Of a DNA stretch of 64,000 nt, positions 13,167 through 37,463 are shown one piece after another. Source of the stretch: a virus. Taxonomy: Duplodnaviria > Caudoviricetes. The notes beneath the pieces are model-generated. The model searched no databases, was not told the origin of the DNA, and worked only from the letters and a program-made list of their open reading frames with translations. Positions within the stretch are counted from its first letter, which is position 1. Every line of letters begins with the position of its first letter. The DNA lies in IMG/VR virus record IMGVR_UViG_3300013936_000011, positions 32,001-96,000 of that record. One strand, 5' to 3'. Position numbers and translations under genes: made by a program.

Positions 13167-16100
13167 ATGGCAAGAAAAAGAAGAGATAAAAAACGTGATC
13201 CTTCAACTCTGGAAAGATTAAGTAAAGTAAGTGTAACTGCTCTGGCTGTTGGTGCTGGAGCAGTTTTTTTAAATCGTAATAAATCTGTTAATAAGTTTTT
13301 GACGGATACAGCCTCTCCTTTACTTAAAAGTACAAAAGGATTCAAAAAAGATTTAATAGGTCGTGATAAGAAAAATCTTATGACTTATTACAGAGCTTAT
13401 CAAAAGAACTTTGGTAAGAACAGATCCAAACTTAGAGATGAAATTAAAAGAAGAAAGATTAGTCCTTTAGCTCTTAACGTAAAGAATTCAAAAGCTGTAC
13501 GTGATGCTTTAGAGCATAAACAATTTGTTTCTAAGACTGGATACAAAGCGTTAGAAAAGAACAAGAGAATTGCTGGTAAGATATTAGCACGACAAGAGCT
13601 TTATAAATATTTCTTACAAAGCGAAAAATACAAACATCTTACTGAAGATAATGCAAGACAAATAGTAAAAAACGTATATGATAAATTAGACGACGAAGCT
13701 ATTGCGAGCAAGATAATAGATGAAATGATACCGAAGACCATGGAAGGTATAGGTATAGAGAAAATAGACTTTAATGAAATATTCACTCTTATCAATGAAG
13801 TTAAAAAGAAAAGTAGTCCAAAGACTAATTCATTAGATCCTTATTTACGAAAGAATAAAGATTTATTCGATAGCTTAAAAGGGCATAGAACTCGTGAAGA
13901 AAGTGCATTTGATAAAGTCGATAAGTTTTTTAAGAAATTCTTAGATGTAGATATAAACTCCGAAAAGTTTATAACAAGTTCTAAGGCTGCAACCATCGGA
14001 GATTTAGAAGATAATTTAGAGAAGTTTGATTTTGAATCTCCTCTGTATGAAAAGATGAATGTTACGGCCAAGAAGCCTTCGACTAGATCTAAACGTAAAG
14101 AGTTTGACTACGATACATTTATCCAAACATTGAAAGATATGTATGGTGAAGAAGACTACAGAAATGTAGTATTGGATCCTTCTATAAGAATAAAAGATGG
14201 AGCCGACGGTCCTGAATTCTTCTCTGTAGAAGAAATGTCAGAGACTATGAAGAATATCAAAAATGGATTTAAAGATACTTTACCTGGTCAAATATTAGCA
14301 AAAGGTTTCGACGATAAACGTGGAATGCCTGACATAGCTATTATACCAGCAGATACTAAATCAGCATTTGCTAGAGCCAGAACATTTGATATAGATGAAG
14401 TAGGTCAAGCATTTAAAGAAGATAGAGAAAGAAATATATCATCAACTCCGTCTTTATATATGGATGGCTATCTATATGATATGAGAGAAAATGCTGACGG
14501 CAAGGTAACTATAGATTTTGATAGCGGTCAAAGAGTTAAAATGGTCAGCGGTTATAAGCGCAGAGTATTAAATGAATTACTAGGTACTACTGATGAATAT
14601 AAACCAGAGGCTTTCCATAGTGAGCTTGCTAAGAAACTTGGATTAGTACAAGATGGTAAGTTCAATCCTATAAATCATCTTATGAGATCACTAACAAAAT
14701 TTGAAGATCCTAACTGGGAATTTAATCAAATTGAATCTATAGAAGGTATTTATTTATCTACTGCATCTCCTGCTGATACTGTAAAAGACATGAGATCTCT
14801 TGGTACAGCTGAGACAGAGATTAGTAAATATAAATCTAGATTGCATAGAAATGAAGAAACAGTGGCTGCATTACTTAATAAGAAGCTTACTGGTATAACA
14901 GATGAAACTATGGAAGCTATCATTGATAGTGGAAATATAACAGAAAAACAAAGAGATATGTTACAAGCTTTGATGGATGGGGACATAACATTTTATATTA
15001 AAGCCGCTGCTTTTGACGAAGCTGGTAACTATAATCTTAAAGATATTAAGAATGATAAGCTTAGAAATATAGTTAATAACTTAATAACTGATACTAAAGC
15101 TACATTAGATTCTACAGAAACATTATATAAAAAGGGTGCAGCGTTACCTATATTAGAACTAGAGTTTGATTCTTCTACTAAACTTAATCTTGAAGGTCAA
15201 TTAAGAATAGAAACAGTTAAAGATATCTTACTTAATAAACAAGGCACAGATGATGCTATGTTTAACTGGATAGACGAATTGAATGTTAATGATATTCCTA
15301 TTACTAGTAAAGACAATGCTATGTTAAAGAGTATGGGTACATTAGCTGTATTCGAAGATAGAACTCATTTAGGTACTATATCTAATTTTACTAGCGCAGT
15401 TAACTCTTTATATGAAAATACTGATTATACCTTAAACACTGAATTAGAGCTTAATCCTCAAATGAAAAATAGATTTGAAAATGATTTAGGCTCCATTAAA
15501 AGTGATTTCGGTTTATTCTCTATAGGATATAATAAAAATCTAAACGAAGAATATGGTACAGACTATACTAAGTATGGATTAATCCATATGTCTAGTGCAT
15601 CTCAAATATTAACATATAATATGAATGAGGGCATTAAGTTTAATGCACAAGCATTAAAAGATACTGTACGTGAACTTAATGCTGGACGTAATGATCCTGA
15701 ACATATAACTGAGCTTACAATAAATCTACAATACTTATTGTCTAGATTAAGCTACAGTGTTGAAGGCGAAGGTCTTGGTTTAAGTGCAAATGATATGGGT
15801 AGTCCCCTTGAAACTGTAAAGAATATAGCACTTAAAAGATTATTGCCTGCAGCCGCTATATATCAAGGTTATAACGTATTAAATTATGAATCACAGAAAT
15901 TGACTGGAACTTCTATACCTGGTGCTTTTGCTAACTCTTTAGCTAACATAGATATAGCAAGTAGAAGATTAATAGAGAATACGCCTTTATACGGTGCATT
16001 AAATTCATTAGCTGAATCTTCTGTAATCCATGAATATTATTTTGGTGATCGTCATTTTAATACAGCTGAAGAAGAGCAAGAATATTATGAAACAGGTTAT

Positions 16101-19100
16101 TCTCCAGTACGTAAAGGTAGATTCTGGAGTTTTGGTTCTGCTTCTGAATACAGAGGTGGAAGTATTACTTATTGGGAACCTAACTATTTAAAGAGAGCTA
16201 ACAGTGATTGGAAAGATGCTGGTATTTATGGAAGTATAGATAATAGATGGGCTCATAGCTGGATACCAACTCCACAACATCCATTAGCTCCTATTAGAAG
16301 ATTACTAGACCCATACTGGCTAGAAAAATATCATTTAAAAGAAAATGACAGACCTTATCCTTTAACTGGTAAAATGTTTACTGAAGGTACAGCCTGGGGT
16401 GCAGTACTTAATCCTACTATTGGACAAATATTAAAACCAGTTAAAATGCTACCTCAAGTTAAACGTCGTTTAGGTAGAGACGGTAGAGATTCTGTAGCTA
16501 TAATAGAAAACTTAAATAACAGAATCAAACAACGTGCTAAAGAAAATGATGACTTAATGGTAGTTAATGGTACAGATATAAGAAATGCTGAGTACGTTCC
16601 ATACGGTAATCCAGATGATGATGAACTTAATGTAACTGTTTCAAATGGACATGCAACTGTACAAGGCATGAATTATATGGACCAAGTTAAGAACATAAGA
16701 GAGTATGAGCCTCCAGATGGAGTGACTTATACAAATGATACTATAGATTATAATAGTGGTACAGTTAGCAGAAAACAACAATACATAGTAAGCAAAGCTG
16801 AAAAATTTGTAGATGAATTGGATAGAAGCAGTTACAATGCTACTAGTATAACTGAAAGTGCTACTAATATAATTAAAAAAGTAAATACAGCAATTAAACG
16901 TAAGAGTAAACATGCTAGACGAATAGATAATTCTACTTTAATGCCAGATAAACGTGAAGGTACTTTTGTATATCGTAACTTAGCAAATGAAAGGCTTAAT
17001 TACGATAATCAATATTACTCAGACCATGAAATTAAAAAGATGGTTGATCGTAGCGTTTATAAAGATTATGCCAGAGATGTTAAGCACAGTATAAAAGACC
17101 TTACTGGTATATATGGATTCCTTGGTGATAAAGCATTTGGTACAGATACATATACTTATCGTTTTGCTAATGCTGGTGAAATGACAAGTTTCAGCCGTGG
17201 ATTCTGGGATTCTAACATTGGTGGTTTAGGTGGAGAATTTATGGAAATCGCTAGACGTTTCTTCCCTAATACTGATAAGTCTAGAGTAAGTTATAATCCA
17301 TTAAGAAATAATATGCCAGATTGGATACCAGATACATATCATTATGGAGACCCTTATGTAGAAATACCTAAAGGCGAAATGAGACTTCCTGGTAAGGGTT
17401 ATGAAGCTATGTATGATTTGCATCCTGACCAATTCGGTAGATATGGTGCATTTGATAGATATAAAATCTTAGCAGATATTGCTCCTAACAGTACTGAATT
17501 TAAGAAATGGAAGAACATAGCTAAGAATACAGTAACGGATCCTAATTTAGTTAAAGAGATGGAAGACATTGGCGTACGTGCATCCAAGATGAGTGGTAAT
17601 CACGAATTCTTTGATTATAAATACATACGCAACAATCTTGAATACAGAAAAGGTAGAGTTCAAGGAATAAGCAATGGCCAAGTCGTATTAGCTGGCGGTG
17701 AAACATTAACATTAGCTGGACTTAACGTAAATGACCAAACTACTGAAGCATTAAAAGAATACTTAAAACCTGGACAAAAGATTACATATCGTACATATAA
17801 AGACAAGAAGATAGATTTAGAAAATACTCAAAGAATAACAGAAGCTGTAGTATATAGTGGCTCATCAAATATAAATGAGAGATTATTAAACGAAGGATAT
17901 GCTGAAAAGAACAAAGAAGATAATTCGGCTCTTGGTATAGCTGGTACACAATCTGGTCATCAAGAAGTTATGGGCGGTCTTCAAGAAGTTATAGCACATG
18001 CTCCTTTACCATACGTACACAGTAAATTCTTAAAAGTAGAAACTCCTCTTGAATCTTATAAGAATGAATTGTATTATGGACATCCATTTAATACATGGGA
18101 CCATCCTATTAAAGGATTCGTAACTCCTGCATTTAATAAAAATAGCGGTAAGAGTCTTGCAGGTGAAGCAGTAGCATTAGGATATGCTTATCTACACTTT
18201 AGTAAAATAGCAGGTAAAACTAGTAGTAAGTTATTAAGTAACGTTAGCACATTTACTATGGCTACATTAAATCCTGCATCATTCCTTGGTATAGCTTTAG
18301 GTTATGCTACTAGATTAAGTAATGGTAAGATAGAAGGTAATGGCGGAAGCTCTTTAACTAATGCACAAAAAGGAGCAGCTATTACTACTGCTATTAGTGC
18401 TGCTAAATATGGTTGGGATAATGCAGATAATCCTCTTAAAGCAGCTACTACATTTGCATTTGCTGGTAGTGTAATATCTCATAACCTAAAAGGCGTAAAT
18501 GAATTTGCAAGAGAAGCATTTAATAAAGAACTTAATTTCTTGCCTGGTGATTTTAAAGCTGGTGCTAAGATAGGAGCTCTCGTAGGTTTAGGAGTGTCAG
18601 CTATAAAGAACTCTCATTTTGACAAAGACAAAATATTCTCAACTAAATTTGTTCCTAAAGAAACAAAGGAAAGATGGGACATAGATGAATATTATGACAG
18701 AATGGAATATGTTAAATATATGGGATTATACAGAAAAGCAGCTAGAAAAGCTGAATTTTTTGAACATTCTAATATAAGAAGCACATTTAAAGAGTTAGAC
18801 AAGAATAAAGAAAAGATAGCTAAGCTTGATAGAAAAGCTACTAAACTTGCAACTAAGAATTCTACTAATGAAAAGATACAAAGCAAATTAACTGAAATAC
18901 AACAACAAAGACAAGCTCTTGAAGAACAAAACAACATGTTCTTTAAAGGTGGCAAATATACACAATCTGCTGTAGCTTATAAGAAGAAAGCAGAATCTAC
19001 ATTATATGGATTAAGCCCTACATCTACTAAAGATGAGTTACTAGCTGCAGTTCCAGATGAATATAAAGATCACTTCCAAGCATTTATGGACGTTACAGAT

Positions 19101-19595: not shown

Positions 19596-19620
19596 AGCCA
19601 TGTTAAACCATGGCTTTCTT
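19594..19620 (+). terminator. Stem-loop / probable intrinsic terminator
   Basis: Perfect 9-bp stem AAAGCCATG-TTAAAC-CATGGCTTT followed by CTT. Confidence 0.65.
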
Positions 19621-19621
19621 C

Positions 19622-19635: not shown

Positions 19636-19654
19636 AAGGTAGGTGTGTGCGTAT

Positions 19655-22600
19655 ATGGCGAATTTTAATAAAAATATTACGATATATGATAATAAATATA
19701 GTGTCGTTAAAGGTAGAAGAGCTGATGGTACTTTTAGAAGTGGCAGTGAGACATTAGCAGACAGACAGAAGAGAGTAAGTACTAAGTTTGCTGATGACAT
19801 AACAGCTATTCAAGACTTTGTTGATACTTTTGCCAATCAATCTAAAGTCATCTTTAGAGATGATAATACATTGGTTCTTAAAACTTCTCATAAGCCATTT
19901 GATAGAGTAGAAGAAAGCGAAGCTGCTAAGAAAGCTTTAGATATATTAAATACTAATAAATTTTTCAATACTATCACAAACAAAACAAGTCCTAGTAACG
20001 TAACTCTTAAATATCATAATTTAGCTAATATAAATACTACTGCTTCTTATGATAATATGAGTCATGTATTTGATAAATATCAAAACATAATAAAGAGTAA
20101 TGGTACTATAGTCGGTTACGACCTTGAAACACTTGGTGGTATGTCTGATGGTATATGGAATCCATTAGGTATAACTGAATTCGGTATTAATAAACAACAC
20201 ATAGTTAATGGTAAAGTAGCTAAAACAACTAGTGAGAATATCATGCTATCTGGTACTGTAAATCATACAGCTGAGTTAAATAAAATCAGAGCCGTACTTA
20301 TGAGTCCTAATGGTGCTAAGAAATTAGCAGAAGATCCTCAATATAGAGGTCTACTTGTTTCTGCAAAACGTTATAGTATGTACGGTCATAAAGATACTAA
20401 GATACATTTTGATGGAAAGAAAGGCTACGGAGTAATCGACTCATTCGTCGGTGAAAAAGGAGAAGCTTGGGGTAATTTAGAACAGATTACTGCAGGTGTT
20501 AATAAATTTATAAATATAGAAAAACAAGCTTCACAAGCCATAGATGAAGCTTCAGGATTAAGAAAAGATGTTAAAACATCTATTGATTATATATTCGATA
20601 TAATGAAGACAGGAAACGATCAACACGGTTTAGTAGTAGGTCATAATATACGTGGATTCGATAATGCTGCACTTAATCAATATGTAAAGAAACTTTATAA
20701 CAGTGATAAAGCTGCACAGAAATATATAACTAGTAAAATGGGTATCCTAGGAATAAATACTCCAGGATTCCATTTAGGACCTATTGCACAAGCCGATTCA
20801 TTAAACTTTTCTAGGGTAGTAAATAACAAGAATTATATGGGTGCATTACTTGATGTATCTGATAGAGGACGTCAAATACTTGCTCAAGCTGGACGTGGAA
20901 TTAATAAGCAAGAAAATATAGGAGCAGTATTCTTCCCTCACTTATTCGAAGGTGCTATGGCGCATAGTGCAGGTAACGATACAGCCGTAGTTAATGCGTT
21001 CTTTACTCATAGATTTACAGAAGATTATTTAAAGAAGATAGGTATCGATCAAGATGCTATCGGTACTTTTAAAGGCAAAACTCTTATAGAAGCTATGAAT
21101 GATATGATGGGCTCTTTCGATAATGCTGTCGATATTAAAGCTAATCGTCAACAAATATTTATGGCTAATAAAACTATGAATGGTAGCTTTGGCGGTAAGA
21201 AAGTATTTAACTTTACACGAGATAGCCAAGGAAATATAATAACTTCTACTGGTCATTTTATTAATCCAAATGGAGGTATAGAATATAATCCTGTACATGG
21301 TAAACAAATAGGTGTAGTTAGAAATCAACCATATACTATAGTTAATTATGGTTCCGTAAACACATCTCAATATTCAGGGCAATTAGCTAACTTAGTACCT
21401 GAGTTTGCAACGGATGAAGCGTATTATTTAAATCTAGAACAAGTAGTTGGTGATAAATATAAATCAAGAACAAATCCTACACAGACTACTATGTTGTTCT
21501 CTACTAAAGAAGAAATGGAAGGCTTTATAGATTCATACTTGACTCCATTTGCTGAATCTACTACAGGTGGAGGATATAAATATCTTGGTAACAGAAAAGT
21601 AGCTGAATCATACGCTAAACAATATATGCTTACTGATAAAGGTTTAGAATTTAATCAACAACAATGGAATAGTATGTTTGAAGCTGAACAAATCAAAGGT
21701 GCTTTAAATTCTAATTTCGAAAGAAGATACGAAAAGAAAGCTGCTGAAAACTTCTTATTTGGAGATAAGTCTGCTAAAAGAATTGGTGAGTCATTAGACT
21801 TTATAGAATACTTGAACAAAAAGAATTTATCTGCAATGACTGCTGATGATTTAGGACGTATCTATTACAATAAATACAGCGGAATGAAAGTAGGAAATGT
21901 AGAAATTACTAAGAACCTAGCCGATGAAATTAGAGAGAACATCAAAGATACATTCGGATTCCATCCTAGAGACGAAAACGGTAAGCCTCTTGAAAAGAAA
22001 ATATTATTAGATGCTACTGCAGATAATGCTATAGCTTCATTCGAACATGTTAAAGAACAAGAGAAATATTATAGAAATGCGTTAAACACAGTTTTTAAAG
22101 CTCACAATATAAATCCTAGTCAACATGGTAGTTATGGAGTAACTATAGCTAAAAGTGGTCAAGTCATGGCTGCAATTAATAATGACTTTATTACTCTTAA
22201 TGATGCATTAAGTGTTCCAGTAGCTAATTCTGTAGGAGAATTTATGGATTTATCTGAAAAAGGCGTACGTAACTTAGCATTAAATGCTGATACTCAACTT
22301 ATGCCTAAAGCTTTAGTAGATAATATGTATGAATTCAAATTAAGTAAAGATTTTTATTTCAATAAGAAAGCTAGTAATATTAATGGCCTTATGTCACCTA
22401 AAGAGTATCAAAACATAATTCAATATAGTCTTGATAGTTCTGACCCTGGCATGAACTTTATAGATAAGCTTATTAAAATACAAACAGGTGCTACACGTCA
22501 ATTAACAGAGACAGAAAGAATACAATCTGGTAGACAAGTATTTTATCAATTTGTAAATGACGAGTTATCTAAAGATAAAGTACTTAGCAAAAATCAACAT

Positions 22601-28600: not shown

Positions 28601-29002
28601 GGCAAAGATAGTTTATTAAGTAGCCCCGCTTCTATAATAGGATTTAGTGCTATCGGTTTAGCTATAGGTGTAGCTGCTGCAGGATATGCAGGTGGACCAC
28701 TTAAGAAGAGTAAAGCTGTTCAAGACGAACAACAACAAAGACAACAAACAGACGATAGAATGACTGTCCCTGAATTTTTTGACAATCAAGGAGGCTTTGT
28801 TACAGGAAATTCACAACAGGGCTATATTATCAATATCAATGCTAATACTAAGAAAGGTGAACGTCATATGAAGAGAGCTATGAAAGAAGCTGTATCAGCT
28901 TCTGTTGGTGGCGCAGTAAGTATAAATATGAATTTCAAAAGTAATAGTAGTGGTGGATGGTCAGATAAAGATATCGAAAAAATAATTAATAATTATATGT
29001 AA
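19655..29002 (+). CDS. Giant virion protein: DEDDh 3'-5' exonuclease plus single-chain two-barrel (DxDGD) RNA polymerase, hydrophobic C-terminus
   Basis: Start revised to ATG 19655 (AGGTG SD 19641-19645). Exo motifs YDLET (20117), GHNIRGFD (20639), HSAGND (20963). RNAP motifs YEQG (24137), K-x7-K (24644/24668), VIANDNVTGHENMG (24968), RYP (26909), NGDLDGD (27017-27037). Confidence 0.8.
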   Translation: MANFNKNITIYDNKYSVVKGRRADGTFRSGSETLADRQKRVSTKFADDITAIQDFVDTFANQSKVIFRDDNTLVLKTSHKPFDRVEESEAAKKALDILNTNKFFNTITNKTSPSNVTLKYHNLANINTTASYDNMSHVFDKYQNIIKSNGTIVGYDLETLGGMSDGIWNPLGITEFGINKQHIVNGKVAKTTSENIMLSGTVNHTAELNKIRAVLMSPNGAKKLAEDPQYRGLLVSAKRYSMYGHKDTKIHFDGKKGYGVIDSFVGEKGEAWGNLEQITAGVNKFINIEKQASQAIDEASGLRKDVKTSIDYIFDIMKTGNDQHGLVVGHNIRGFDNAALNQYVKKLYNSDKAAQKYITSKMGILGINTPGFHLGPIAQADSLNFSRVVNNKNYMGALLDVSDRGRQILAQAGRGINKQENIGAVFFPHLFEGAMAHSAGNDTAVVNAFFTHRFTEDYLKKIGIDQDAIGTFKGKTLIEAMNDMMGSFDNAVDIKANRQQIFMANKTMNGSFGGKKVFNFTRDSQGNIITSTGHFINPNGGIEYNPVHGKQIGVVRNQPYTIVNYGSVNTSQYSGQLANLVPEFATDEAYYLNLEQVVGDKYKSRTNPTQTTMLFSTKEEMEGFIDSYLTPFAESTTGGGYKYLGNRKVAESYAKQYMLTDKGLEFNQQQWNSMFEAEQIKGALNSNFERRYEKKAAENFLFGDKSAKRIGESLDFIEYLNKKNLSAMTADDLGRIYYNKYSGMKVGNVEITKNLADEIRENIKDTFGFHPRDENGKPLEKKILLDATADNAIASFEHVKEQEKYYRNALNTVFKAHNINPSQHGSYGVTIAKSGQVMAAINNDFITLNDALSVPVANSVGEFMDLSEKGVRNLALNADTQLMPKALVDNMYEFKLSKDFYFNKKASNINGLMSPKEYQNIIQYSLDSSDPGMNFIDKLIKIQTGATRQLTETERIQSGRQVFYQFVNDELSKDKVLSKNQHIIELGSYVQKKDYNLRHALSYLEQGISEVREANPEAGVIRSTAKRGIKTNYLMSKYRNNLTPEAMAETMKGIGKTVDVSSAKGTERKKMVEKLVNSFIIDEGTFSRDLKALHGSNTDAIEDTMLAYRTLKKQYGTFVNDLIDAAGNVDMNLVFNEKSGRLFVQKGEKMVDLDNIARIISDQGALYGKSGSQRLAIHHVLEYDQRAKALKYRTNLDDHFGGMKTLVKRIDKLAEKGEVDLDSFRRAVGKLQVDLNEAPVYKYNYGSLLLANSPVDIRGVDPLYPELFKEDGEFHSIITRMSNNDKFNVDDLQNIMERRIPESLEPGKLDPMQRSLMSPDVVPILQEFNRATTNNSVVDRILKHINDTGKETKETKGIKVVNELYIPQGSGGFDNYGRPVSVSAFNRNWIKANTIEEASKTYENLLIGARVIDTKQVHANIYKNVKEVGNLAGDFAIRQLNMSNQNISQLVKYKRNSVIDSIINKYSNDPDRKYIADDVEQIMSEVEHIVRGSVYEQGKLMDPELFERLIGDNPQDVRKISYNLNAIPAIEAMLEREDPEKLIKTKIPQMREMFGELKRDENGHYRYVKTPGTIIKRGETIFPYEAFGDIEKRFGSKFPESVLSLKFRNKEGIELSEAEISKIINDTFGKQDIDIKDVINLFSNGDEFTAAYEVAHISQQELPKTFSNSAEKSMTRIPYAKTGSHDPRIRKILTDTENDHWVKNIVLRDETLDAWYHDLEKAYKDGGKTAKDILKQNGFDTIQDLKEAAKRERLLYRDFVFGENSIFGMVSVIANDNVTGHENMGHQMSSALGEAIRLTGKYTAKPGASNTEQWESGINKVAEIIASDPKKFGFIREMDSSKGVNEAKTLDISQNLSLLFSTNTYDKNKKGIEVLDSEKIVNLFREIDKTILKNAPEEDRLVHTNLEGVDELVGAVKTITVDGKRHAIGSVGVTSTAFAEDSEVQSGVSQEYLDAKKALRQYTHMLDQVKAIKPEDLTEQHINLLKILPERIEEIRNEIDAMSDGAAFMKIDDQLRNILSNSALNSTTERRLSNLIANSSDPYGYTKLIEEASDKLIARNKDGEFEINKKYKTDNVNRPWLEDVKQQITFNPLEEDELTEKMLKEEEYRHLEPIYNEVVRKRGMKLGTDSAELFYQGNIAYAGAKFNAGGNVDLQPLLDKGVEVVPAEKYVGNLGRASAGQFVSSYADKTILLDLGENYANMSETGNRYIAVPGLGNVVNSQEIKRDWQKTAGALANTWQEWSNLGFNDTEEGLRLVSRMDDLYDKLNTESQQIVKKGNVFAEKAKVRVNAPAQRLKIQATLGESELHDPLIDKIRANTPDNYKVDEDWFRDNATILGKSVSEWEKHGPNGPSLYYNYRLSSMSDFQNKGYFDYDFMRQMGFTKKDASGNMVPITDKTELRSEMINYLKTHGTMDISDRYPNIYDTSALTNYTFLDTTLADNATAIAGHTLSNLNGDLDGDSDSTVKIAKNNVNYLLYNKHKEDSMAQMKADLKAQNIDIDSLDKDMVEENLRRNTIQSMKQNNVRGTAEELGEAYDFFRGKELESIRVAVDNAKVVRENVAETLAKDSGRAYKSMALSVDGKNLLAEVEGGRSSLGRLRTFNRRENVGAGELVKSDNELKDYFAEAVNVLDKQPDLFKGEKFKYVEGMREIGDKESAKTVVSFGNNQREALDEMLYILQKSGSQMADQAETAALGRIQQNKYVESLLFKGSKDAIGLVDAQLYAMKQASDNYFAQAEKDTERRLRLSGMSESEIRNSPELKSIALKRGNITLFSGGSEQDIISAKKLKMYAGDDRFMSFGGTMQSIRSGRATQETREDFLDWFERYGKFSTVASQFDTWADDGTLSESMINKASSYIDKYEKEGVKDAAEKGKAMYLAEHYYDTIDTLNKNNESFRADANLFAVFGRNGGSVERLVNVEGASGESHTALIQSLLSGQDVSYKDHDFEKQGTRVMADRLKNINNFKNITKASSETLEHIVEGGKDSLLSSPASIIGFSAIGLAIGVAAAGYAGGPLKKSKAVQDEQQQRQQTDDRMTVPEFFDNQGGFVTGNSQQGYIININANTKKGERHMKRAMKEAVSASVGGAVSINMNFKSNSSGGWSDKDIEKIINNYM

Positions 29003-29086: not shown

Positions 29087-32000
29087 ATGGCTAATAATCT
29101 TTCAGATATAAGAGATAAATGGGCAGAGATGAAAGTCTCTAAAGTAGAAAATACTGATATGGATATAGAAGATTTTGTCCCTAATATCTACGAAATGATA
29201 AAAGAAGATTGTATTACTGAATATCTAGGGTCTATATCTGATTCTTTAAATAAAGGCAAAGATGATTATAAGAACGTAGCTTATTATTGCGAAGCTCCTT
29301 ACAGTGAAACTCTAGGCTATGATGATAAAGAAAAGGTCTGGGTATTAAGTGTAGACGGAATAGAATATAGTAAAAATATGCTTGATATGGGTTCTATAGA
29401 TGGTGATACATATGGTTTTAGTTTTTCTGATATAGATGATGGTGGCAAAAGCGCAACTATAGGTTCTAAAACATATAAAGGATTTGAAGATTATATTAAA
29501 TCTATGAACTGCGTTAGTAGTGGTGGCGACGACAGAGGCGGTATTAAAGTCAGAGCCGCAGGTGTAGACTGTGCCGAAATCCCTCACTACGAAGCTGTGG
29601 TTGTTTACAATAAAGATACAGAACTAGAAGCATTGACATGGGACCAAATAGAAGGTTTAGCTGTATCTAAAAAAGCTGAGATACAATATGCTCCTTATCT
29701 TATAAATAAGAATAAGAGTGATGATCCTGATAAATGGACTCTTTCAGAAAGAGATAAATCACACTCTGTTTTATTCTACAAAAACAAACAAGACGGAATT
29801 ACTACTTATCTAGAAGTAGTTAAAAAAGATGCTTCTTATTTATTTAGCTCATCTAGTGATTATGCTGGCGGTACTCCTATGTTAGTTGTAGGAGCTGGTA
29901 AATCTTGGGGCAAGGATACAGTATTAGATGGTTATAAAGCTCAAAGAAGAATCAAAGAGCTTTTAATAGATAAAAAGAGCAGCATACAAGATATGATACT
30001 AATACTTGATGCTCACACTACTACTGCAGTTAGAACAGCTCCTACATATACATGTTATACCTCTTTATATTATTTCCCTGAAACAGTAAAAAATATAATA
30101 CAAAGTTGGATTGATAAACAAGATGGTAGACCATTAAGCAGATTAACTTATTCTCCATTCGGTACAGATAAATATGGACGTTTACTAGGAACACTATACG
30201 TTAAGATGAAAATGAACGGAGAATCTGTATGGATTAATGTATCTAAATATGTTCAAGCAGGAACAAACCTTACTGAACCAGATCCTGATTTTAGTGGTTC
30301 TCCAGAATTAGAAGGTATTTACAACGGACTAAGTAACGATGCATTTAAAATAGGAAGTTATAATAACTCTTATAGATTTATAGATGATAGTAATGTTAGC
30401 GGAAATGAATCATTTGAAAAAATGATCAAACTTCATGAATCTCTTACTGGTTTAGAATGGAACGCAGAAAAAGAATGTACTGTATTGCTTGGTGATAGCT
30501 TCTTCTTAATTCCTCCACAAAGTATTCGTAATGTAAGTAACATAGATTATACAAAAGTACCACTATTAAGAAGTAAAGGTACCATGGTTAAGAATCAAGC
30601 TAACCGTGAACAAGTACTCGAAATGGACGTATTCTTCTATGGTGAAAATGGTATCAACGGTATTCCGTATAAAGCAGAAACGCCTAATGGTACAGAAGTT
30701 ACTTACTATATGAATGGTCTAAGAGCATTATTTGCTCAGTTCAGAATATGCCCTTTCTTACCTATTCATAATTATTATATCAATAATGTATTAGGAATAG
30801 AAGCTGTAACAATGGTAGGCATCTCACTTGATACGGTTGAAGGATTTCCTAAATTGCTTAAAGCTACTCTTACTCTTCGTGAGTTTAACTACAGAGTTTA
30901 TATGCCAGATTTACCTATACAATATGTAAATAGTGATACTGGTAAAATACAAGACTTTGAACCTATATTTGCCAAATGTTTCGAATGGGAAGTTTACAGA
31001 TATTATTATCAAAGATGTATTATGCACGGAGAAGAAATAAGTAAGTATACTTACAATACATATGAATACGGTGAATACTATTATTCTTATAAGAATGTCT
31101 TACAACGTGCAAATTTAACTTCTCAAAGTATAGAGTTTTATGTGCCAGATGATAATTGGTTAACTAAAGCTTTACAATGCAAAAAAGATAAGGATAGATA
31201 TGGTCAAATGATATCTTCAGTATCATTAAATGATGATGAATCAAGTTATGTAAATGAAATAGCTGGCGATGATCCATTAGTAGATAACGATACTTTTAAA
31301 AGCAAACTTAAAACATTGCTTAAGGATAGTAAGGTTCAACTTAAAAATAAATATAATACTTCAGATAGTGTAGTTGGTGTCAACACCAATGATATATACC
31401 GTACTGATGATTATGCTACAACATGGTCTAAATCAAGAACTCATGTTATGGATGTTAAACCTAGCGATCTTAAAACTATATTCAAGAACAGACTAAATGT
31501 ATTATTTAACTTAGGATGGGTTAATGATGTTACATTAGATGAAGGATTAAATAGTGCTAATACAGCAGTCGTATGGACTTTTAATATCAAGCTTGATACT
31601 AGTAAAGTTAGTTTAGATAATATCAGAGAATATGTCAGAGACTTATCAACTAAGACAGATGAAGGTGCTTCATCAGCTAACTTCTTTAAAGATGGATGCG
31701 GTAAATATATCGTAACAGCTCAATATGATGAAAACAGTAAGTTTGTCGGCGTATCAGCTGCTTATGATGCAGGACTTGCCGCTATAATGGCCGCAGGTTC
31801 AGGAAGTAATAAGCCATCTGAAGTTAGCACAACTTCTGAAGTATTCAATTATGCAAACTATACAGATCCTAAAGCTATGAAGTTTGTTCCTTACATAAAA
31901 GATTTAAATGGTAACAGTGTAAGCATAGATCTAGATTTATTACATGTAGTAACACAAAACACTTTTACAGAAATGTATTTAAAAGCTCAAGATGGTTTTG

Positions 32001-35000
32001 CTCCTCAATTTATGGGTGGAGGAGATGTAACATTTGAAATAATGTTTACTACACAAGATTTATTAGTAGTATCATTAATGAATCAATTACCTGCTTATGC
32101 ATTACAAACAACTAAAACATATCGTAGAGTAATGCCTTGTTTCCCAGTTAAAGCTAAAAATGATTATTTACAAATGCTAGGAATTAATGAGTGCTTGGTC
32201 GAAAATGTTAACGTAACAACAGTAGACGGCTTCCCTGGAACTTATCAAATACAAATGAGATTCACATCTGTAGATAGAACATTAAGACAAAGAGAAGCTT
32301 TACGTAAAATAAATACTGATGGATTTACTAGTGATATAGCATCTACTAATATAAAAGATTATTTTTCATTAGAAGAAGCTCTAGCACAATCTGAATTATA
32401 TCCTGACTTAGATTTACCTAGTCTTGCTGAATTAGAGAAACTAGGTTGGAGCTATTTAAAATATGCTAATGAGAATAGAGCATATGTCGATCCTGATTTC
32501 TATATTATATATTCTTATCAATACAGCGCTCAGATGACTAAAGAGATAGTTAAAACATATTTGTATGACAAATATTATGTAGCAGCTGAAAAGGATAAGG
32601 AAGATGGTACAGAAACAAAAACAGTTGGACAATGTTCTGCCAGTGATTCTGTATTACATATGGAAGACGATAGTGGTCTTGTTTTAGCAACTAAGCTTAA
32701 TAAGATAATGGGACTTGATGTATGCGATAATAGTCAAAACTCTGTATCTAAATATGCGCAAGAATTAATGAGTCAGCTCAATGTAGCAGGTGAACAAGAA
32801 ACTTTATTTAGAAAAGGTAGTATGTTTGCATCTGATAATTTCGATGACTTAATGGAATTAGGCACAACTTTATCTTGCTTAACAGCTTATGGTATAGAAA
32901 ATGGATGGCAAATAAAAGAAGGTTGGTTTGCTACATTGTCTCAAACTTATGTTAATGATTTAGTTGAAAGATTAAAAGTATCAGGCATCAACAAAGCTAA
33001 CAGTAAAAAAGAAGATAAAGAAGCAAAATGGGTAAACGAAATATACACAAAGAGAAGAAATGCTATCCTTGCTATAAATGAAATACTATATTCTCCAATG
33101 GAATTAGAAGGCGGAAATAGATATGCTGATTTATCATGTGTTGCTGATGCTTTCTGTAAAGTATTCGATACTGATGCTGGTATAAGACTATTAAATATTT
33201 TAGACCCTATGGGCAATTATTCAAAAGGCGGATTAAAGAAACTTGCTACTACTGGTGGTGAAAGTGGTGGAGCATCTAGCGGTCACTTTAGTGAAAAAGA
33301 TGGCTACTATTATGGAGACTCTTCTTATACTACTGACAATGCTGGTGAAAAATTTGATGAAGAAGTATGGGCTGAAGGTAACTTGCCATTATACTTACAA
33401 GGATATATTTACGCAGCAGGTTGTTGTCGTACTGGTCAACAATATAATAAGAGCAATAACGACTGGGCTCCACAACAATTTATTAATGGCGATACTAATA
33501 AACCTAATATAAGATATAAAGATAACAAAGTAGTTAAAGCATACGACGAAAATGATAAAGACATAAAGAAGATAGCTAAAGATAAGAACTTAGGCATGGA
33601 AGATGCTTATTGGTATTATGTAGCTACTGTTGGAGATTTCTTTGGTGCTTGGGGAATAGGTAAATATAATATCAAAAGAATACAAGATATGATGTGTCCT
33701 AAAAGCCAAGTTAATTATAAATGTAAAGAAATGTACGATTTAAGTAAAGATCCTAAATGGTGCGAAAAAGGATTCCTTGATCCATATTATAACTACCAAG
33801 GTTACAGAAGTAAAAAAGGTCGTGACTATATAAAAGCTATATCTACTAATGCATGCGATAACTGTGTAGCTTTCATACGTGTAGTATTACAAAAGCTAAA
33901 AGAAATGCTAATAGATGGTTATTTTATAAGTGAAGTAGATGTTATAGCTGGAAACTATGATCAAGTAAAAAAAGAATGGGACGAATATATTGATCAATGG
34001 GATAGTTCCTTAAACTATAATAGTGGTGATCAAGACCACGGCGGAAGTGGCAAAAAGCTACAAGAAGAGGCACTTAATGATGCAATAGAAAAGAAATACG
34101 GTATGTCTAAAGAAGATATGGATGCATTAATAGAAGACGATATACCAACTAGTTATTCTCAAATATTTAGTGCTAGAATGATTTATCCTGTAATGTTAAT
34201 GGCAATAGACTGTAATGCTAAAATAGCTAAGTTAGTAACAAAGAGAAATTATGATGAATTAAATAATATGACTCTTGGTACTTCTGTAGGTACTGCTGAC
34301 TGTACTCCTATGAATAAATTCTTACAAGCATTAGCTGGAATTAAGATGTTAGGAACAACTATGGAAACAGATACAGATGCCATAACATCAAATGCACAAA
34401 AGATATTTAATACTTTAATGCAAGAAATAGCTGAAAACTTCTCTAACGATCCTAGAAGATATGTACTTCATAGTTTCTATGATATGCTTACTACTGATAA
34501 GAGAGGTAGATTAGTAAGGGCTTTCCCTACATTTTATATTATATTTGTAGATGAAGGTAGACGTATAGGTACATGGAAATTATACGATAACTTCTACAAC
34601 ATGTCAGCTATAAGCAATATAGATATTGTTAAATCTAGAAAAGTACCAGCAGATACATGCACATTTACTATGAGTAACTTATATACTTCATATGCTTCTA
34701 CATACGATAATACAGTGTATCAACAATACGTAGATGTATATGGTGTTAAAGATTACTTTAATAGCATATTCTCTCCTCGTGCTTATTTAAATACAGAAGA
34801 GATGATACGTGGACGTAAACAATTAACAGATACTACAGTATTAAGTGCAGGTGTTAGAATACATGTAAGAATGGGTTATGGTTCTGATGGTTCTAAATTG
34901 CCTATAGTATTTAATGGTAAAATAGCCGAAGTTAACTGCGGTGAAACTATCGATGTAGTATGTCAAGGTGATGGTCATGAATTAATGAATCCATTAAATG

Positions 35001-37462
35001 CATTTGGTGAACTTGAAGCTAAGTCTCTCGAAGAAGCACAAAGCTGGGTTACAATATGTAAAGATATCCGTGGAGCAATAGCTCGTGGTGGCGAAACTCC
35101 TAAGAACTTAGTTGCAAAACTAATGACTGCTAAATACGGTGGCGTAGTTAAAACAGCTATCAGAAAAATGTTTAATAACAGATTCTTCTCTGAAAACCCA
35201 TTTGGTATATATCATTTCGGAGATAGAAGATTTAAAGATATATTTGCAGATAGTGAAATAGTTCAAAACTTATATGAAGTATCAGATGAAGCTATATTAT
35301 CAGGCGTAACAGCTTTGGTCCCTGATAAGTCAGAAAGTAATTCGACTCCTACAATCAACTGTTCAATACAAGATAAATCAATGTGGGAAATAGTTAATCT
35401 ATGCGCTCATGCAGGTGATGATTATTTTGCAGCAATCAGAGACTTTGGTATGAGAAGTACATTATGTATGATGAAAGGTAATCATTATTATGCATATGCT
35501 TATAAGAAAGTAAACAGTGTGATTTATGAAAGACGCAAGCCTTTCCAACAATATCATTATTTCGATTCTTATAACGATATAATCTATAATAGCATCGAAG
35601 CTACAGAAACTAATATGAAAACTAATGCTGTAGGTACATGGCAAGCAACAGACTTTATCTGGGGACATGAACAAGCTACAGTAGGTCCTGTATATCTAGA
35701 CATGAATATATATCCTGAATATCAAAAATCTATGACAGTAGATACTGGTCTTATAGCTAGTGGTAACGGCGGTATCGATATACCACTTATAACTGGTTTA
35801 TCAGAAAGATGGTCAACTGATGCTGATGATGATAAAGTTAACAAGCAATTAGCGAGAAAGATAACTACTAACGTACTTAGAGAATCTGTAAAGGATATGT
35901 ATGATGGACAATTATGTGTAATAGGAGATCCTTCAGTTAAACCATATGATAGATTTGATATCGTAGATACATATGAAGATATGTCTGGACAAATGGAAGT
36001 AGAAACAGTTGTATTTAGTATGAACAGTGAAACAGGTTTTACTACTACAATAACTCCTGATTTAATAGTTCGTGCAGTAGACTGTACTCAAGAAACAAGT
36101 TATCAAAATGTAACTGGACATTTCTTAGCTACTGAAGGTATAGCTGTTACAGCTAGATTAGGTATGGCTAAATTAATTGAATCTAGTGCTACAGCAACTT
36201 TAACTTCTTCAATAATGTCATCTGCTAAATTAAGCTCTTTAGTAGAAAGCTTAGGTGGAGCGGAAGCTTGGGCAAGTCTTAATCAATTAATAACTTCTAC
36301 TACGGTTGGAACTGAAACTGCGGGTGTAGCTGCTGTATTATTAAATCCTGTAACATTAATCGAAACAGTTGTTGCTGGTGCTTGTATATTTATAATTGCA
36401 AAGAATATTCAAGCTGCTTTATTTAACTGGTTAAGAAACGTTCAGGCCTTAACTGTTTATCCTATAAATAAATATCAAAGACAATTAATAGCTGGTATGG
36501 CAGGTCATCGTGGTTCTGTAATGGGTTACCCTTATAAACAATCAAAAGATTCTATACAAGCTATGATAATGGCAGGTTATGAAAAGATAACTGATGTGCC
36601 TATAGTTGGTTCATTAACTAAATCTTTCTGTAAAGGCTCAAATGTAGATAGCGTATTTGAACATTGGAGAGAATCTTTAGGTATAGCTCAAATGTCTAAC
36701 GATACTAATTTATCTATAGAAAATCTATATCAAGAAATATGTGGTTATGCTTCAAAAGAGTATTCATCTAATGGAGCTGAAATACAAGCCCTTAAATTCA
36801 AAGATAGATTGTTGAGTTTTGATACTAAAGGCAAAACAGATCAAACATTCTTACTTTATCAAATAGGTGGTATCGATGATCCAGATAAAAAAGAATACGA
36901 AAGTTTACCTCCTGATGAAAAGAAAAAAGTAACAATAAAAGAATTGCCTACAAATAAGAGAGTTTTAGCATTAACTCCTATAGAAGATGATGATGAAATT
37001 AAGCTTGCTAAAAGTGGTGGACATTCTGTTATCAAAAACTTTAAGATAGCTCATGCAACTAGTGCCTTAGAAGTAGGTATGAAATTTGAAGGTGGAGATA
37101 GAGTTATTAAATATATCACAGATAATGAAGGTAAAGTTTTCGACTTACCTATGATACAAACAGATGCTATATATGTAATAAAAGTAATAATGCAAGATGA
37201 AGCTCTACAAGGAGCAGAACTTACTTTTAATAGTGGTACTAGAGTTAATGATTCACGTTCATGGAAAAGTACAGGATTTGCATTCGTACTTGACTGCGAT
37301 AACAAGGATTCATTAATAACAGCAATTAAGAACGCTAGAAAACAAACAGATTGCGAAACATTAGGACCAAATAGTAAAAAAATAAAACGTCATGTATTTT
37401 CTTATCAAGACACTGATAATGGTGTTGCAATAACAGTATATCCAGGAAAGTCAGGTGAATAA
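29087..37462 (+). CDS. Giant baseplate hub protein (gp27/gpD-like) with N-terminal thermonuclease domain
   Basis: Hub signatures RIHVRMGYGSDG...VFNGKIAEV (~34855) and VIGDPSVKPYD...GQMEVETVVF...GFTTTITPD (~35920-36060); SNase motifs DGDT, RAAGVDCAE, TDKYGR. Confidence 0.78.
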   Translation: MANNLSDIRDKWAEMKVSKVENTDMDIEDFVPNIYEMIKEDCITEYLGSISDSLNKGKDDYKNVAYYCEAPYSETLGYDDKEKVWVLSVDGIEYSKNMLDMGSIDGDTYGFSFSDIDDGGKSATIGSKTYKGFEDYIKSMNCVSSGGDDRGGIKVRAAGVDCAEIPHYEAVVVYNKDTELEALTWDQIEGLAVSKKAEIQYAPYLINKNKSDDPDKWTLSERDKSHSVLFYKNKQDGITTYLEVVKKDASYLFSSSSDYAGGTPMLVVGAGKSWGKDTVLDGYKAQRRIKELLIDKKSSIQDMILILDAHTTTAVRTAPTYTCYTSLYYFPETVKNIIQSWIDKQDGRPLSRLTYSPFGTDKYGRLLGTLYVKMKMNGESVWINVSKYVQAGTNLTEPDPDFSGSPELEGIYNGLSNDAFKIGSYNNSYRFIDDSNVSGNESFEKMIKLHESLTGLEWNAEKECTVLLGDSFFLIPPQSIRNVSNIDYTKVPLLRSKGTMVKNQANREQVLEMDVFFYGENGINGIPYKAETPNGTEVTYYMNGLRALFAQFRICPFLPIHNYYINNVLGIEAVTMVGISLDTVEGFPKLLKATLTLREFNYRVYMPDLPIQYVNSDTGKIQDFEPIFAKCFEWEVYRYYYQRCIMHGEEISKYTYNTYEYGEYYYSYKNVLQRANLTSQSIEFYVPDDNWLTKALQCKKDKDRYGQMISSVSLNDDESSYVNEIAGDDPLVDNDTFKSKLKTLLKDSKVQLKNKYNTSDSVVGVNTNDIYRTDDYATTWSKSRTHVMDVKPSDLKTIFKNRLNVLFNLGWVNDVTLDEGLNSANTAVVWTFNIKLDTSKVSLDNIREYVRDLSTKTDEGASSANFFKDGCGKYIVTAQYDENSKFVGVSAAYDAGLAAIMAAGSGSNKPSEVSTTSEVFNYANYTDPKAMKFVPYIKDLNGNSVSIDLDLLHVVTQNTFTEMYLKAQDGFAPQFMGGGDVTFEIMFTTQDLLVVSLMNQLPAYALQTTKTYRRVMPCFPVKAKNDYLQMLGINECLVENVNVTTVDGFPGTYQIQMRFTSVDRTLRQREALRKINTDGFTSDIASTNIKDYFSLEEALAQSELYPDLDLPSLAELEKLGWSYLKYANENRAYVDPDFYIIYSYQYSAQMTKEIVKTYLYDKYYVAAEKDKEDGTETKTVGQCSASDSVLHMEDDSGLVLATKLNKIMGLDVCDNSQNSVSKYAQELMSQLNVAGEQETLFRKGSMFASDNFDDLMELGTTLSCLTAYGIENGWQIKEGWFATLSQTYVNDLVERLKVSGINKANSKKEDKEAKWVNEIYTKRRNAILAINEILYSPMELEGGNRYADLSCVADAFCKVFDTDAGIRLLNILDPMGNYSKGGLKKLATTGGESGGASSGHFSEKDGYYYGDSSYTTDNAGEKFDEEVWAEGNLPLYLQGYIYAAGCCRTGQQYNKSNNDWAPQQFINGDTNKPNIRYKDNKVVKAYDENDKDIKKIAKDKNLGMEDAYWYYVATVGDFFGAWGIGKYNIKRIQDMMCPKSQVNYKCKEMYDLSKDPKWCEKGFLDPYYNYQGYRSKKGRDYIKAISTNACDNCVAFIRVVLQKLKEMLIDGYFISEVDVIAGNYDQVKKEWDEYIDQWDSSLNYNSGDQDHGGSGKKLQEEALNDAIEKKYGMSKEDMDALIEDDIPTSYSQIFSARMIYPVMLMAIDCNAKIAKLVTKRNYDELNNMTLGTSVGTADCTPMNKFLQALAGIKMLGTTMETDTDAITSNAQKIFNTLMQEIAENFSNDPRRYVLHSFYDMLTTDKRGRLVRAFPTFYIIFVDEGRRIGTWKLYDNFYNMSAISNIDIVKSRKVPADTCTFTMSNLYTSYASTYDNTVYQQYVDVYGVKDYFNSIFSPRAYLNTEEMIRGRKQLTDTTVLSAGVRIHVRMGYGSDGSKLPIVFNGKIAEVNCGETIDVVCQGDGHELMNPLNAFGELEAKSLEEAQSWVTICKDIRGAIARGGETPKNLVAKLMTAKYGGVVKTAIRKMFNNRFFSENPFGIYHFGDRRFKDIFADSEIVQNLYEVSDEAILSGVTALVPDKSESNSTPTINCSIQDKSMWEIVNLCAHAGDDYFAAIRDFGMRSTLCMMKGNHYYAYAYKKVNSVIYERRKPFQQYHYFDSYNDIIYNSIEATETNMKTNAVGTWQATDFIWGHEQATVGPVYLDMNIYPEYQKSMTVDTGLIASGNGGIDIPLITGLSERWSTDADDDKVNKQLARKITTNVLRESVKDMYDGQLCVIGDPSVKPYDRFDIVDTYEDMSGQMEVETVVFSMNSETGFTTTITPDLIVRAVDCTQETSYQNVTGHFLATEGIAVTARLGMAKLIESSATATLTSSIMSSAKLSSLVESLGGAEAWASLNQLITSTTVGTETAGVAAVLLNPVTLIETVVAGACIFIIAKNIQAALFNWLRNVQALTVYPINKYQRQLIAGMAGHRGSVMGYPYKQSKDSIQAMIMAGYEKITDVPIVGSLTKSFCKGSNVDSVFEHWRESLGIAQMSNDTNLSIENLYQEICGYASKEYSSNGAEIQALKFKDRLLSFDTKGKTDQTFLLYQIGGIDDPDKKEYESLPPDEKKKVTIKELPTNKRVLALTPIEDDDEIKLAKSGGHSVIKNFKIAHATSALEVGMKFEGGDRVIKYITDNEGKVFDLPMIQTDAIYVIKVIMQDEALQGAELTFNSGTRVNDSRSWKSTGFAFVLDCDNKDSLITAIKNARKQTDCETLGPNSKKIKRHVFSYQDTDNGVAITVYPGKSGE

Positions 37463-37463
37463 T

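Follow-up and report, generated by a model that had tools for sequence, protein, structure and literature searches.

A 64,000-nucleotide stretch of a tailed-virus genome (positions 32,001 to 96,000 of the IMG/VR record IMGVR_UViG_3300013936_000011; hereafter the window, by whose positions coordinates are given) carries three consecutive giant genes, all on the + strand, whose products of 2142, ~3115 and 2791 amino acids (aa) are designated giants 1, 2 and 3. Giant 2 holds a predicted single-chain two-barrel RNA polymerase (RNAP) in the slot where related phages encode their 'tape measure' protein, and is directly followed by a giant baseplate hub with an N-terminal nuclease. Gene order, homologies, the polymerase fold, motif conservation and the homology of the hub are matters of observation. 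The best explanation of the arrangement, to which a probability of about 0.6 is assigned as a whole, is that late-made tail and baseplate giants may deliver the slot RNAP along with the nuclease cargo of the hub. This joint figure also covers the assignment of the cassette to the inner-tail and hub portion of a tail module from the lineage of Bacillus phage 0305phi8-36, the phage being an uncultured jumbo myovirus, of giant 1 to ORF145-type virion structural proteins of nearly fixed length with an inactive SNase-like fold, of the N-terminal region of giant 2 to DEDDh exonucleases by motif-level identification, and of giant 3 to gp27-type hubs enlarged by swappable N-terminal cargo, hydrophobic segments and a C-terminal domain.

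A predicted two-barrel RNA polymerase in giant 2

Residue numbers of giant 2 count from the GTG codon at 19643; the likely start is the ATG at 19655, which has a better ribosome-binding site and gives 3115 aa, the same length as in the 98%-identical homologue P0004. A word-indexed search yielded 26 homologues of ~3000 aa with 24-98% identity, which together with giant 2 form the alignment A1 of 27 sequences. The family comprises 179 representatives at 50% identity in a profile search of 1.84 billion representatives, and nearly all full-length members have 2600-3344 aa and contain the matched region at a constant place. Scans of the three giants with Pfam, PHROG and NCBIfam gave almost no matches, searches of PDB sequences (phmmer/hmmsearch) returned nothing for any giant or for the profiles A1, A3 and A4 except sub-threshold rows, and ESM Atlas feature searches provided weak leads with scores of 0.76-0.83.

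The polymerase was recognized at the level of the predicted fold, using an AlphaFold2 (AF2) model of aa 1360-2555 with a predicted local distance difference test score (pLDDT) of 78 and a predicted template modelling score (pTM) of 0.77. Since the first half of this model matches beta subunits and the second half beta' subunits, giant 2 is predicted to hold both modules in this order within a single chain. In VIA comparisons, model residues 18-590 reach Z 8.6-10.5 with beta subunits, the best match being E. coli beta 672-1242 (301 aligned residues, root-mean-square deviation (rmsd) 7.3), and among 103 chains with Z >= 8 all 50 among the matches listed are second-largest RNAP subunits. The top structural matches of this half are cellular and jumbo-phage multisubunit enzymes, with the non-virion RNAPs of AR9 and phiKZ at Z 9.5-9.9. 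In the case of the second half, the top Foldseek matches of the model are all largest subunits of the beta'/Rpo1/A190 type (best E 3.2e-4, probability 1.0), and VIA aligns 251 of model residues 755-1196 with M. tuberculosis beta' at Z 6.5 and rmsd 6.2. Among predicted viral structures (BFVD), the best matches cover the whole model, one being annotated as 'Minor tail protein', and a protein of Acinetobacter phage ME3, whose identity with ME3_36 could not be confirmed, matches with E 3.6e-6.

The residues expected at the active site of such an enzyme are retained. PMC2919709 lists as invariant in all two-barrel RNAPs DxDxD, R-x-P located ~35 residues before it (Rpb1 R446/P448) and K-x7-K (Rpb2 K979/K987), with which K1668/K1676, R2423/P2425 and D2461/D2463/D2465 of giant 2 agree. 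K1668 and K1676, 8 residues apart, are invariant in A1 and lie inside the part superposing on E. coli beta 672-1242, and the equally invariant R2423 and P2425 are positioned 38 residues ahead of D2461. Invariance of the catalytic residues over a range of 24-98% identity, and their presence in 72 of 74 distant loci described below, argue for an active enzyme.

Outside the window, the early region of the genome contains a 716-aa open reading frame (ORF) with DFDGD at aa 648 (C1:10910-13060, minus strand; L014:3014-5161:-), which adjoins a 566-aa ORF on the same strand and has no match in Pfam, PDB sequences or GenBank phages. It is a candidate for a second, small non-virion two-barrel RNAP, comparable to 0305phi8-36 ORF99 and P23-45 gp64.

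The N-terminal exonuclease motifs

Ahead of the polymerase, giant 2 presents motifs in the order ExoI DxE, ExoII D and ExoIII Hx4D, which is that of DEDDh (DnaQ/RNase T-like) exonucleases. The set D160, E162, D340, H441 and D446 is invariant in the 27 sequences of A1; in the wider alignment A4, D340, H441 and D446 are invariant and D160/E162 occur in at least 90% of sequences. A sub-threshold match with all three motifs collinear was obtained to the 195-aa exonuclease chain 9mrc_A (E 0.05), and weak Pfam exonuclease matches (PolB-exo/RNase_H_2) in 4 of 36 members point in the same direction, suggesting a putative DEDDh 3'-5' exonuclease.

The tape-measure slot and the C-terminal module

The prevalence of a polymerase in this slot was assessed in 80 IMG/VR loci with 21-99% identity, collected with a profile of the giant 3 DUF6046 region. 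The gene directly upstream of the hub encodes a giant in 74 of these 80 loci, and 72 of the 74 upstream giants contain RxP followed after 28-48 residues by DxD[G/S/T]D, situated 460-680 aa from the C-terminus. Most of them also bear the C-terminal module of giant 2. In this anchor module, a hydrophobic segment rich in Gly/Ala is followed by a Q-rich linker and then by a conserved end of ~60 residues, and A1 shows many invariant columns at positions 3060-3112. A tail profile was built from 49 non-redundant C-terminal tails of the IMG/VR giants, with the ORFs of the genome and reversed decoys as background. It matched gp034 of phage KLEB27-3 over aa 1511-2434 (E 1.5e-60), 0305phi8-36 ORF146 over its last 180 residues only (E 4.7e-14), and CDS0031 of Moorella phage MTATph1, a C-terminal fragment of a transposase-disrupted slot gene (E 2.9e-5). 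The narrow A1 profile gave no link between giant 2 and ORF146, which emerged only with the broader 49-tail profile, and matched KLEB27-3 gp034 at 1.7e-7 in collinear pieces including the exonuclease region.

By position and by its C-terminal module, giant 2 is identified as the orthologue of the 'tape measure' protein of this lineage, and a predicted polymerase is present in most members of the slot family, being absent or unrecognisable in 0305phi8-36. In the latter phage, ORF146 was named tape measure mainly by tail length, and it diverges past BLAST recognition save for the last 60 residues (PMC2147016). Giant 2 shares 24-25% identity with relatives in which giants 1 and 3 share 37-45%, and such fast divergence fits a trait described for tape measures (PMC2147016). 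The GenBank record of 0305phi8-36 lists ORF145 with 1930 aa, ORF146 with 2537 aa ('hypothetical tape measure protein') and ORF147 with 1903 aa (baseplate hub), and its notes state that ORF145 and ORF146 were found in virions by mass spectrometry. All three giants are very probably tail or baseplate virion proteins, because giants 1 and 3 are homologous to ORF145 and ORF147, and giant 2 resides in the ORF146 slot with the ORF146 C-terminal module.

Giant 3, a hub with an exchangeable nuclease

Giant 3 belongs to a family of at least 257 homologue clusters. Its hub domain matches 0305phi8-36 ORF147, MTATph1 and KLEB27-3 in tblastn (2e-62 to 1e-83), and the family profile retrieves ORF147 with 1.3e-95, in which a T4 gp27 domain has been described (PMC2147016). 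Foldseek with a low-confidence model returned only hub/VgrG proteins from the PDB (diffocin, PVC, Mu gp44 and pyocin; best 1.9e-4). Within the hydrophobic region that follows the hub domain, a conserved segment comprises aa 2419-2437.

The N-terminal nuclease retains the SNase triad in P0030-P0036, at 58-99% identity, with the pattern DGDT / RxxG[IV]DxAE / DKYGR. With E 0.039 and 14.9 bits, the Pfam SNase match falls short of the gathering score of 21, and the domain is split by an insert of ~190 aa. The motifs of giant 3 are what we take to be the equivalents of SNase D21, R35, D40, E43 and R87. The nuclease type differs among the 120 giant 3 homologues listed: Endonuclea_NS_2 occurs in 54 of 120, some also with Endonuclease_NS, the SNase motif pair in 36 of 120, Amidase_2 in one and other domains in a few. 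Where relatives have Endonuclea_NS_2 in place of the SNase-type nuclease, it is found in the N-terminal part (E 1.8e-22); the exchange concerns the N-terminal ~1000 aa of the giant 3 family (window 29087-32000; L005:19284-27752). The accessory domains of 0305phi8-36 ORF147 are wall hydrolases, and its gp27-type hub has been termed 'hyperplastic' for its exchangeable N- and C-terminal domains (PMC2147016). Because relatives swap in other nucleases or wall hydrolases at this place, the hub nuclease resembles a cargo slot and not a fixed DNA-handling part.

Giant 1, an ORF145-type protein of nearly constant length

Giant 1 matches ORF145 with 8.1e-113 in phmmer and 3.7e-184 with the family profile. 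The family has at least 220 homologue clusters with strongly conserved sequence blocks, and its length is confined to 2084-2204 aa (standard deviation (SD) 22 aa in the 120 clusters listed). A stretch at aa 1538-1583 gives a sub-threshold match to Pfam SNase (PF00565; E 0.031), found in 8 of 29 family pieces, and a weak ESM Atlas lead to an SNase cluster (score 0.76). SNase catalytic residues are absent, with LAGLNVND at the RxxGxDxxE position across the family. KLEB27-3 (L013 947-8100) encodes its giant 1 homologue in two parts, gp031 and gp033, which flank a small gene.

Organization and origin of the tail module

The giants are located in a same-strand run of structural genes (Table 1), separated by gaps of 47 nt (giants 1 and 2) and 84 nt (giants 2 and 3). 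A 367-aa gene lies between the tube paralogue and the chaperonin pair upstream of the giants; in the tube paralogue itself (8094-10832) only the first ~180 of 912 aa are tube-like, the remainder being the long extension. Both chaperonin genes are paralogous, with an N-terminal domain in common, and the tail chaperonin of 0305phi8-36 is likewise of a two-gene form (Hardies et al. 2007, PMC2147016). Downstream of giant 3, small genes are followed by gp25/gpJ-like baseplate genes; the 121-aa gene (37455..37820) has no sequence match to the gpV-like ORF148. Products of 0305phi8-36 ORF139, ORF140, ORF141, the chaperonins ORF143/ORF144, ORF145, ORF147 and gpJ were matched in the same order by phmmer, with ORF146 as the sole pairwise gap, and by these matches the tail module is judged collinear with ORF138 to ORF151. 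The 0305phi8-36 record also places ORF142 between ORF141 and the chaperonin genes. Two stem-loops, one straight after the giant 1 stop (19596-19615; 7-bp stem, T-rich tail) and one after the giant 2 stop (29029-29060; 13-bp stem), could be attenuators or RNA-processing sites within a late operon.

Table 1. Features of the tail module and of the three giants, with window coordinates
Feature	Position	Strand	Remarks
Tail sheath, 988 aa	4333..7299	+	PHROG tail sheath 8.7e-65; phmmer to 0305phi8-36 ORF139 1.6e-34
Tail tube, 222 aa	7342..8010	+	phmmer to 0305phi8-36 ORF140 (tail tube) 8.8e-39
Tail tube paralogue with long extension, 912 aa	8094..10832	+	phmmer to 0305phi8-36 ORF141 (tube paralogue) 6e-26
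Two-gene tail chaperonin pair, 130 aa and 269 aa	11956..13159	+	phmmer to ORF143/ORF144 'tail chaperonin' 1.8e-8 to 3.2e-25
Giant 1, 2142 aa	13167..19595	+	orthologue of 0305phi8-36 ORF145
Giant 1 N-terminal hydrophobic segment, aa 18-36, after basic N-terminus	13218..13274	+	KD19 1.46 here, 1.34 family average
Giant 1 SNase-like domain, aa ~1495-1583, lacking the catalytic residues	17649..17915	+	Pfam below threshold; weak Atlas lead
Giant 1 Gly/Ala-rich, moderately hydrophobic segments, aa 1696-1813	18252..18605	+	family-average KD19 1.05 and 1.13
Giant 2, 3119 aa from GTG 19643; 3115 aa from ATG 19655	19655..29002	+	slot of 0305phi8-36 ORF146
Giant 2 putative DEDDh 3'-5' exonuclease motifs: ExoI D160/E162, ExoII D340, ExoIII H441/D446	20102..20980	+	invariant in A1
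Giant 2 predicted RNAP beta-like module, aa 1377-1949	23771..25489	+	VIA Z 10.5 to E. coli beta 672-1242; invariant K1668, K1676
Giant 2 predicted RNAP beta'-like module, aa ~2114-2555	25982..27307	+	Foldseek and VIA; R2423-Y-P2425, D2461-L-D-G-D2465
Predicted catalytic metal-binding motif DLDGD, D2461-D2465	27023..27037	+	invariant in 27/27 sequences
Giant 2 hydrophobic Gly/Ala-rich segment, aa 2996-3016	28628..28690	+	KD19 1.92 here, 1.62 family average, >=1.38 in all 27 members
Giant 2 C-terminal module (GYIININA...INMN...DKDIE)	28808..28999	+	common with 0305phi8-36 ORF146 C-terminus
Giant 3, 2791 aa	29087..37462	+	'hyperplastic' baseplate hub, N-terminal nuclease; phmmer to ORF147 hub 3.5e-86
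Giant 3 SNase-type nuclease with long insert, aa 105-372	29399..30202	+	triad DGDT, RAAGVDCAE, DKYGR
Giant 3 DUF6046-like region, aa ~950-1063	31934..32275	+	Pfam DUF6046 0.0036 here, 9e-8 in the L010 homologue
Giant 3 gp27 / Mu gp44 / VgrG-type hub domain, aa 1774-2374	34406..36208	+	PHROG 20474 6.8e-171
Giant 3 hydrophobic segment(s) after hub domain, aa ~2405-2445	36299..36421	+	KD19 1.93 here, 1.71 family average
Giant 3 conserved C-terminal alpha/beta domain, aa ~2620-2790	36944..37456	+	sole confidently modelled part, pLDDT 70-89
121-aa gene	37455..37820	+	place of gpV-like spike gene ORF148; basis is position alone
gpJ-like baseplate wedge protein, 270 aa	38927..39739	+	PHROG baseplate wedge 8.6e-13; phmmer to ORF151 5.7e-12

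Because the source record of 146.6 kb has a CheckV completeness estimate of 56%, the phage genome is estimated at roughly 260 kb, which would place it in the jumbo class; its GC content is ~31%. Cultured relatives, found via searches with the giant 3 hub region and the sheath protein only, are the Bacillus phages 0305phi8-36, KLEB27-3, WH1 and Edson and the Moorella phage MTATph1, with a weaker match in these protein searches to Acinetobacter phage ME3. GenBank phages gave no match for giant 2 in tblastn nor for the sheath gene in megablast. ME3 (vB_AbaM_ME3, L101 3932-19539), a phage of a Gram-negative host, has the module too: a homologue of ORF145 is accompanied by a slot protein of 1603 aa, with RxP...DHDQD, and by a hub of 2329 aa. 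The host of the phage analysed here is probably, on slender evidence, a low-GC member of the Bacillota: the hosts of the cultured relatives are Bacillus and Moorella, and related contigs are binned in metagenome-assembled genomes labelled Bacillota, Clostridium, Clostridia and Bacilli, with one labelled Proteobacteria. Identity as a crAss-like phage, the first idea, was dropped after the sheath and baseplate genes turned up.

Conservation of the three giants

An original prediction made from the letters of this stretch had placed three consecutive giants where a myovirus normally has its tape measure and hub, and the three indeed stand there, between the chaperonin pair and the baseplate genes. 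Taken there as a departure from the usual layout, three giants at the tail locus are the norm for the 0305phi8-36 lineage (ORF145/146/147), on record since 2007 (Thomas 2007; Hardies et al. 2007), and are not peculiar to one genome. Its domain readings held up for the RNAP of the middle giant, by the AF2 model, the VIA and Foldseek matches to beta and beta' and the invariant motif set; for the exonuclease, by motifs invariant in 27 sequences with profile matches that stay sub-threshold; and for an intact SNase with a hub in the third giant, by the retained triad, below the Pfam threshold, and the homology to ORF147. The hydrophobic segment noted in each giant is conserved at family level in all three according to KD19. 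As regards the degenerate SNase of giant 1, the degeneracy was borne out by the missing catalytic residues, the SNase fold itself remaining sub-threshold.

As regards conservation of the trio, all relatives examined, very distant ones included, have the RNAP giant next to the hub giant, and all three giants are adjacent in L005 (giant 2 with 25% identity), L009, 0305phi8-36, KLEB27-3 and MTATph1. In L007 as well as L010, the RNAP giant still borders the hub giant, with giant 1 no longer alongside. The upstream neighbours of the RNAP giant in both loci are two small genes on the reverse strand, preceded in turn by replication genes in L007 and by a 2581-aa fibre-like gene of leucine-rich repeat/CotH type in L010. 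In the contig of P0009, a relative 33% identical over the whole of giant 2 and 36% over the RNAP region, an opposite-strand gene for a ROS_MUCR-family regulator is inserted between giants 1 and 2 (L008:5779-6252). In MTATph1 (L012 8934-16290), a transposase gene lies within the middle-giant slot, and CDS0027 and CDS0031 look like pieces of the slot gene.

Proposed mechanism and competing explanations

According to the best explanation, the three giants would be synthesized late and become part of the tail and baseplate, giant 2 by way of its C-terminal module. Upon contraction, hub and slot protein would exit the tube, and their hydrophobic segments would insert in the cell membrane. The polymerase, present in few copies per virion, would refold or be released at the entry site and transcribe the first phage genes without the host enzyme, as P23-45 gp96 does, and the hub-borne nuclease would serve as an injected effector. 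We infer presence of giant 2 in the virion, its ejection, catalysis and membrane insertion.

Several points weigh against this explanation. A folded polymerase of ~130 kDa is too large for a tube lumen of ~4 nm, and it must be extended, held in the baseplate or held in the head. The only slot protein with published virion proteomics, ORF146, has neither a recognisable RNAP nor DxDxD, and for this reason its virion status carries over to giant 2 only via the common slot and the last ~180 aa. In the polymerase of giant 2, bridge helix and trigger loop were not identified, and the exonuclease and SNase identifications are motif-level and below Pfam thresholds. The AF2 model of giant 3 aa 1650-2791 is poor (pLDDT 54), and its fold matches serve as support for the sequence homology. 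In addition, giant 1 with its nearly constant length could be the tail ruler instead of the slot protein.

The original prediction had envisaged the three giants as a single ejected machine, in which a trans-envelope channel is formed, the RNAP is membrane-anchored, the nuclease folds process DNA and transcription pulls the genome in. Such a machine would be in line with the family-conserved hydrophobic segment in each giant and with the invariable neighbourhood of the RNAP and hub giants; the authors of the P23-45 study propose a virion RNAP coupled to a tape measure pore (PMC10770324), and phage N4 ejects its virion RNAP and two further proteins as an ejectosome (PMC13434306). However, the processing of DNA at entry by every nucleic-acid fold is not supported, given that giant 1 lacks the catalytic residues of its SNase-like fold and the hub nuclease is exchangeable, and giant 1 stands apart from the other two in L007 and L010. 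A probable Gram-positive host implies one membrane, and Hardies et al. consider polymerase-driven entry too slow for such genome sizes (PMC2147016), leaving the single machine distinctly improbable. A broader conception, in which a widespread clade of jumbo contractile phages, including KLEB27-3 and possibly ME3, threads an exonuclease-RNAP through the tail within the tape measure, to refold as a membrane-anchored entry complex beside the hub nuclease, so that tube-delivered proteins would take on early transcription and perhaps also a share in the entry of the genome and the destruction of host DNA, is regarded as doubtful.

Another explanation starts from the size of the folded RNAP relative to the tube lumen: giant 2 might be a capsid-packaged ejection protein like N4 gp50, the cargo of crAss-like phages or the phiKZ virion RNAP, and the true tape measure another protein, for example giant 1, whose constant length with an SD of 22 aa is ruler-like. 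The ejected proteins of T7, N4 and crAss-like phages are also encoded beside tail genes. Yet the giant 2 gene, after the tail chaperonins and before the hub, is at the canonical place for a tape measure, its C-terminal module recurs in the 0305phi8-36 protein assigned this function, it diverges fast like known tape measures, and the split of the giant 1 homologue in KLEB27-3 would be odd for a ruler, which makes capsid storage quite unlikely. Very unlikely is a role of giant 2 as a non-virion middle or late polymerase, or as an inactive polymerase-derived structural relic. Although the slot proteins of 0305phi8-36 and MTATph1 without the motif indicate that the polymerase part is dispensable in some lineages, the invariance of the catalytic residues over 24-98% identity and in 72 of the 74 distant loci speaks against a relic, the small DFDGD ORF of the early region would suit the part of a non-virion polymerase better, and a position in the tail operon together with a conserved anchor module at the C-terminus is hard to square with a soluble enzyme.

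Comparison with known systems and significance

In mechanism, P23-45 gp96 is the nearest known system; in descent, it is the tail module of 0305phi8-36. A tape-measure-borne polymerase is experimentally known only for the Thermus siphovirus P23-45, in which gp96, a virion RNAP fused to the tape measure protein, serves to transcribe pre-early genes, one of which encodes a second polymerase (PMC10770324). Giant 2 resembles gp96 in that a giant protein from the tape-measure slot, equipped with membrane segments, is predicted to contain a two-barrel RNAP with DxDGD in a single chain, and the DFDGD ORF may correspond to the second, small non-virion polymerase encoded elsewhere. Unlike in the siphovirus, the tail is contractile; no similarity to gp96 emerged from PDB sequence searches, and the VIA Z to the related P74-26 gp62 is 6.7. 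The beta-like half of giant 2 reaches Z ~10 with cellular beta, the putative DEDDh exonuclease is fused at its N-terminus, its polymerase lies mid-protein and not N-terminally as in gp96, and no metallopeptidase domain was found in giant 2.

With 0305phi8-36 are shared the order from sheath to gpJ, the two-gene chaperonin, the hub with exchangeable domains and homologues of giants 1 and 3, whereas ORF146 differs from giant 2 in having no recognisable exonuclease, RNAP or DxDxD, and ORF147 carries wall hydrolases in place of the giant 3 nuclease. KLEB27-3 gp034 (vB_BauM_KLEB27-3, OM634661, 'structural protein') is a member of the giant 2 family from a cultured phage, shorter with 2434 aa, with DYDGD at 1933 and encoded directly upstream of the hub giant gp035. 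N4 gp50 with gp51/gp52 and gp66 of the crAss-like phage phi14:2 are alike in that a giant virion polymerase is ejected with companions for early transcription; these phages differ in being podoviruses with capsid-stored cargo, and the N4 enzyme is T7-like, not two-barrel. The RNAP model of giant 2 was matched weakly by phi14:2 gp66 (BFVD E 0.03). Similar to evolved VgrG spikes and hubs of contractile injection systems, giant 3 has a gp27/VgrG-type hub fused to exchangeable enzymatic cargo, differing in being a phage hub of 2791 aa with N-terminal, putatively delivered cargo.

In the literature found on the 0305phi8-36 lineage, a slot polymerase is not described, the papers of 2007 and 2010 and the jumbo-phage survey of 2021 mentioning only the YonO-like ORF99, and the supplementary survey of the P23-45 paper (PMC10770324) includes neither 0305phi8-36 nor KLEB27-3. 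Slot proteins of cultured relatives have so far been labelled 'tape measure', 'structural protein' or 'hypothetical'. The present analysis suggests that a design similar to that of P23-45, with no sequence match to it, with a more cell-like beta/beta' and a fused exonuclease, fills this slot across a clade of contractile jumbo phages, and as the cultured KLEB27-3 has a family member, the question is directly testable. If true, it would explain how these phages begin transcription, and it would raise the puzzle of how an enzyme of ~350 kDa passes through a 4 nm tube. It would also mean that phage hubs, like the spikes of secretion systems, can bear exchangeable nuclease cargo.

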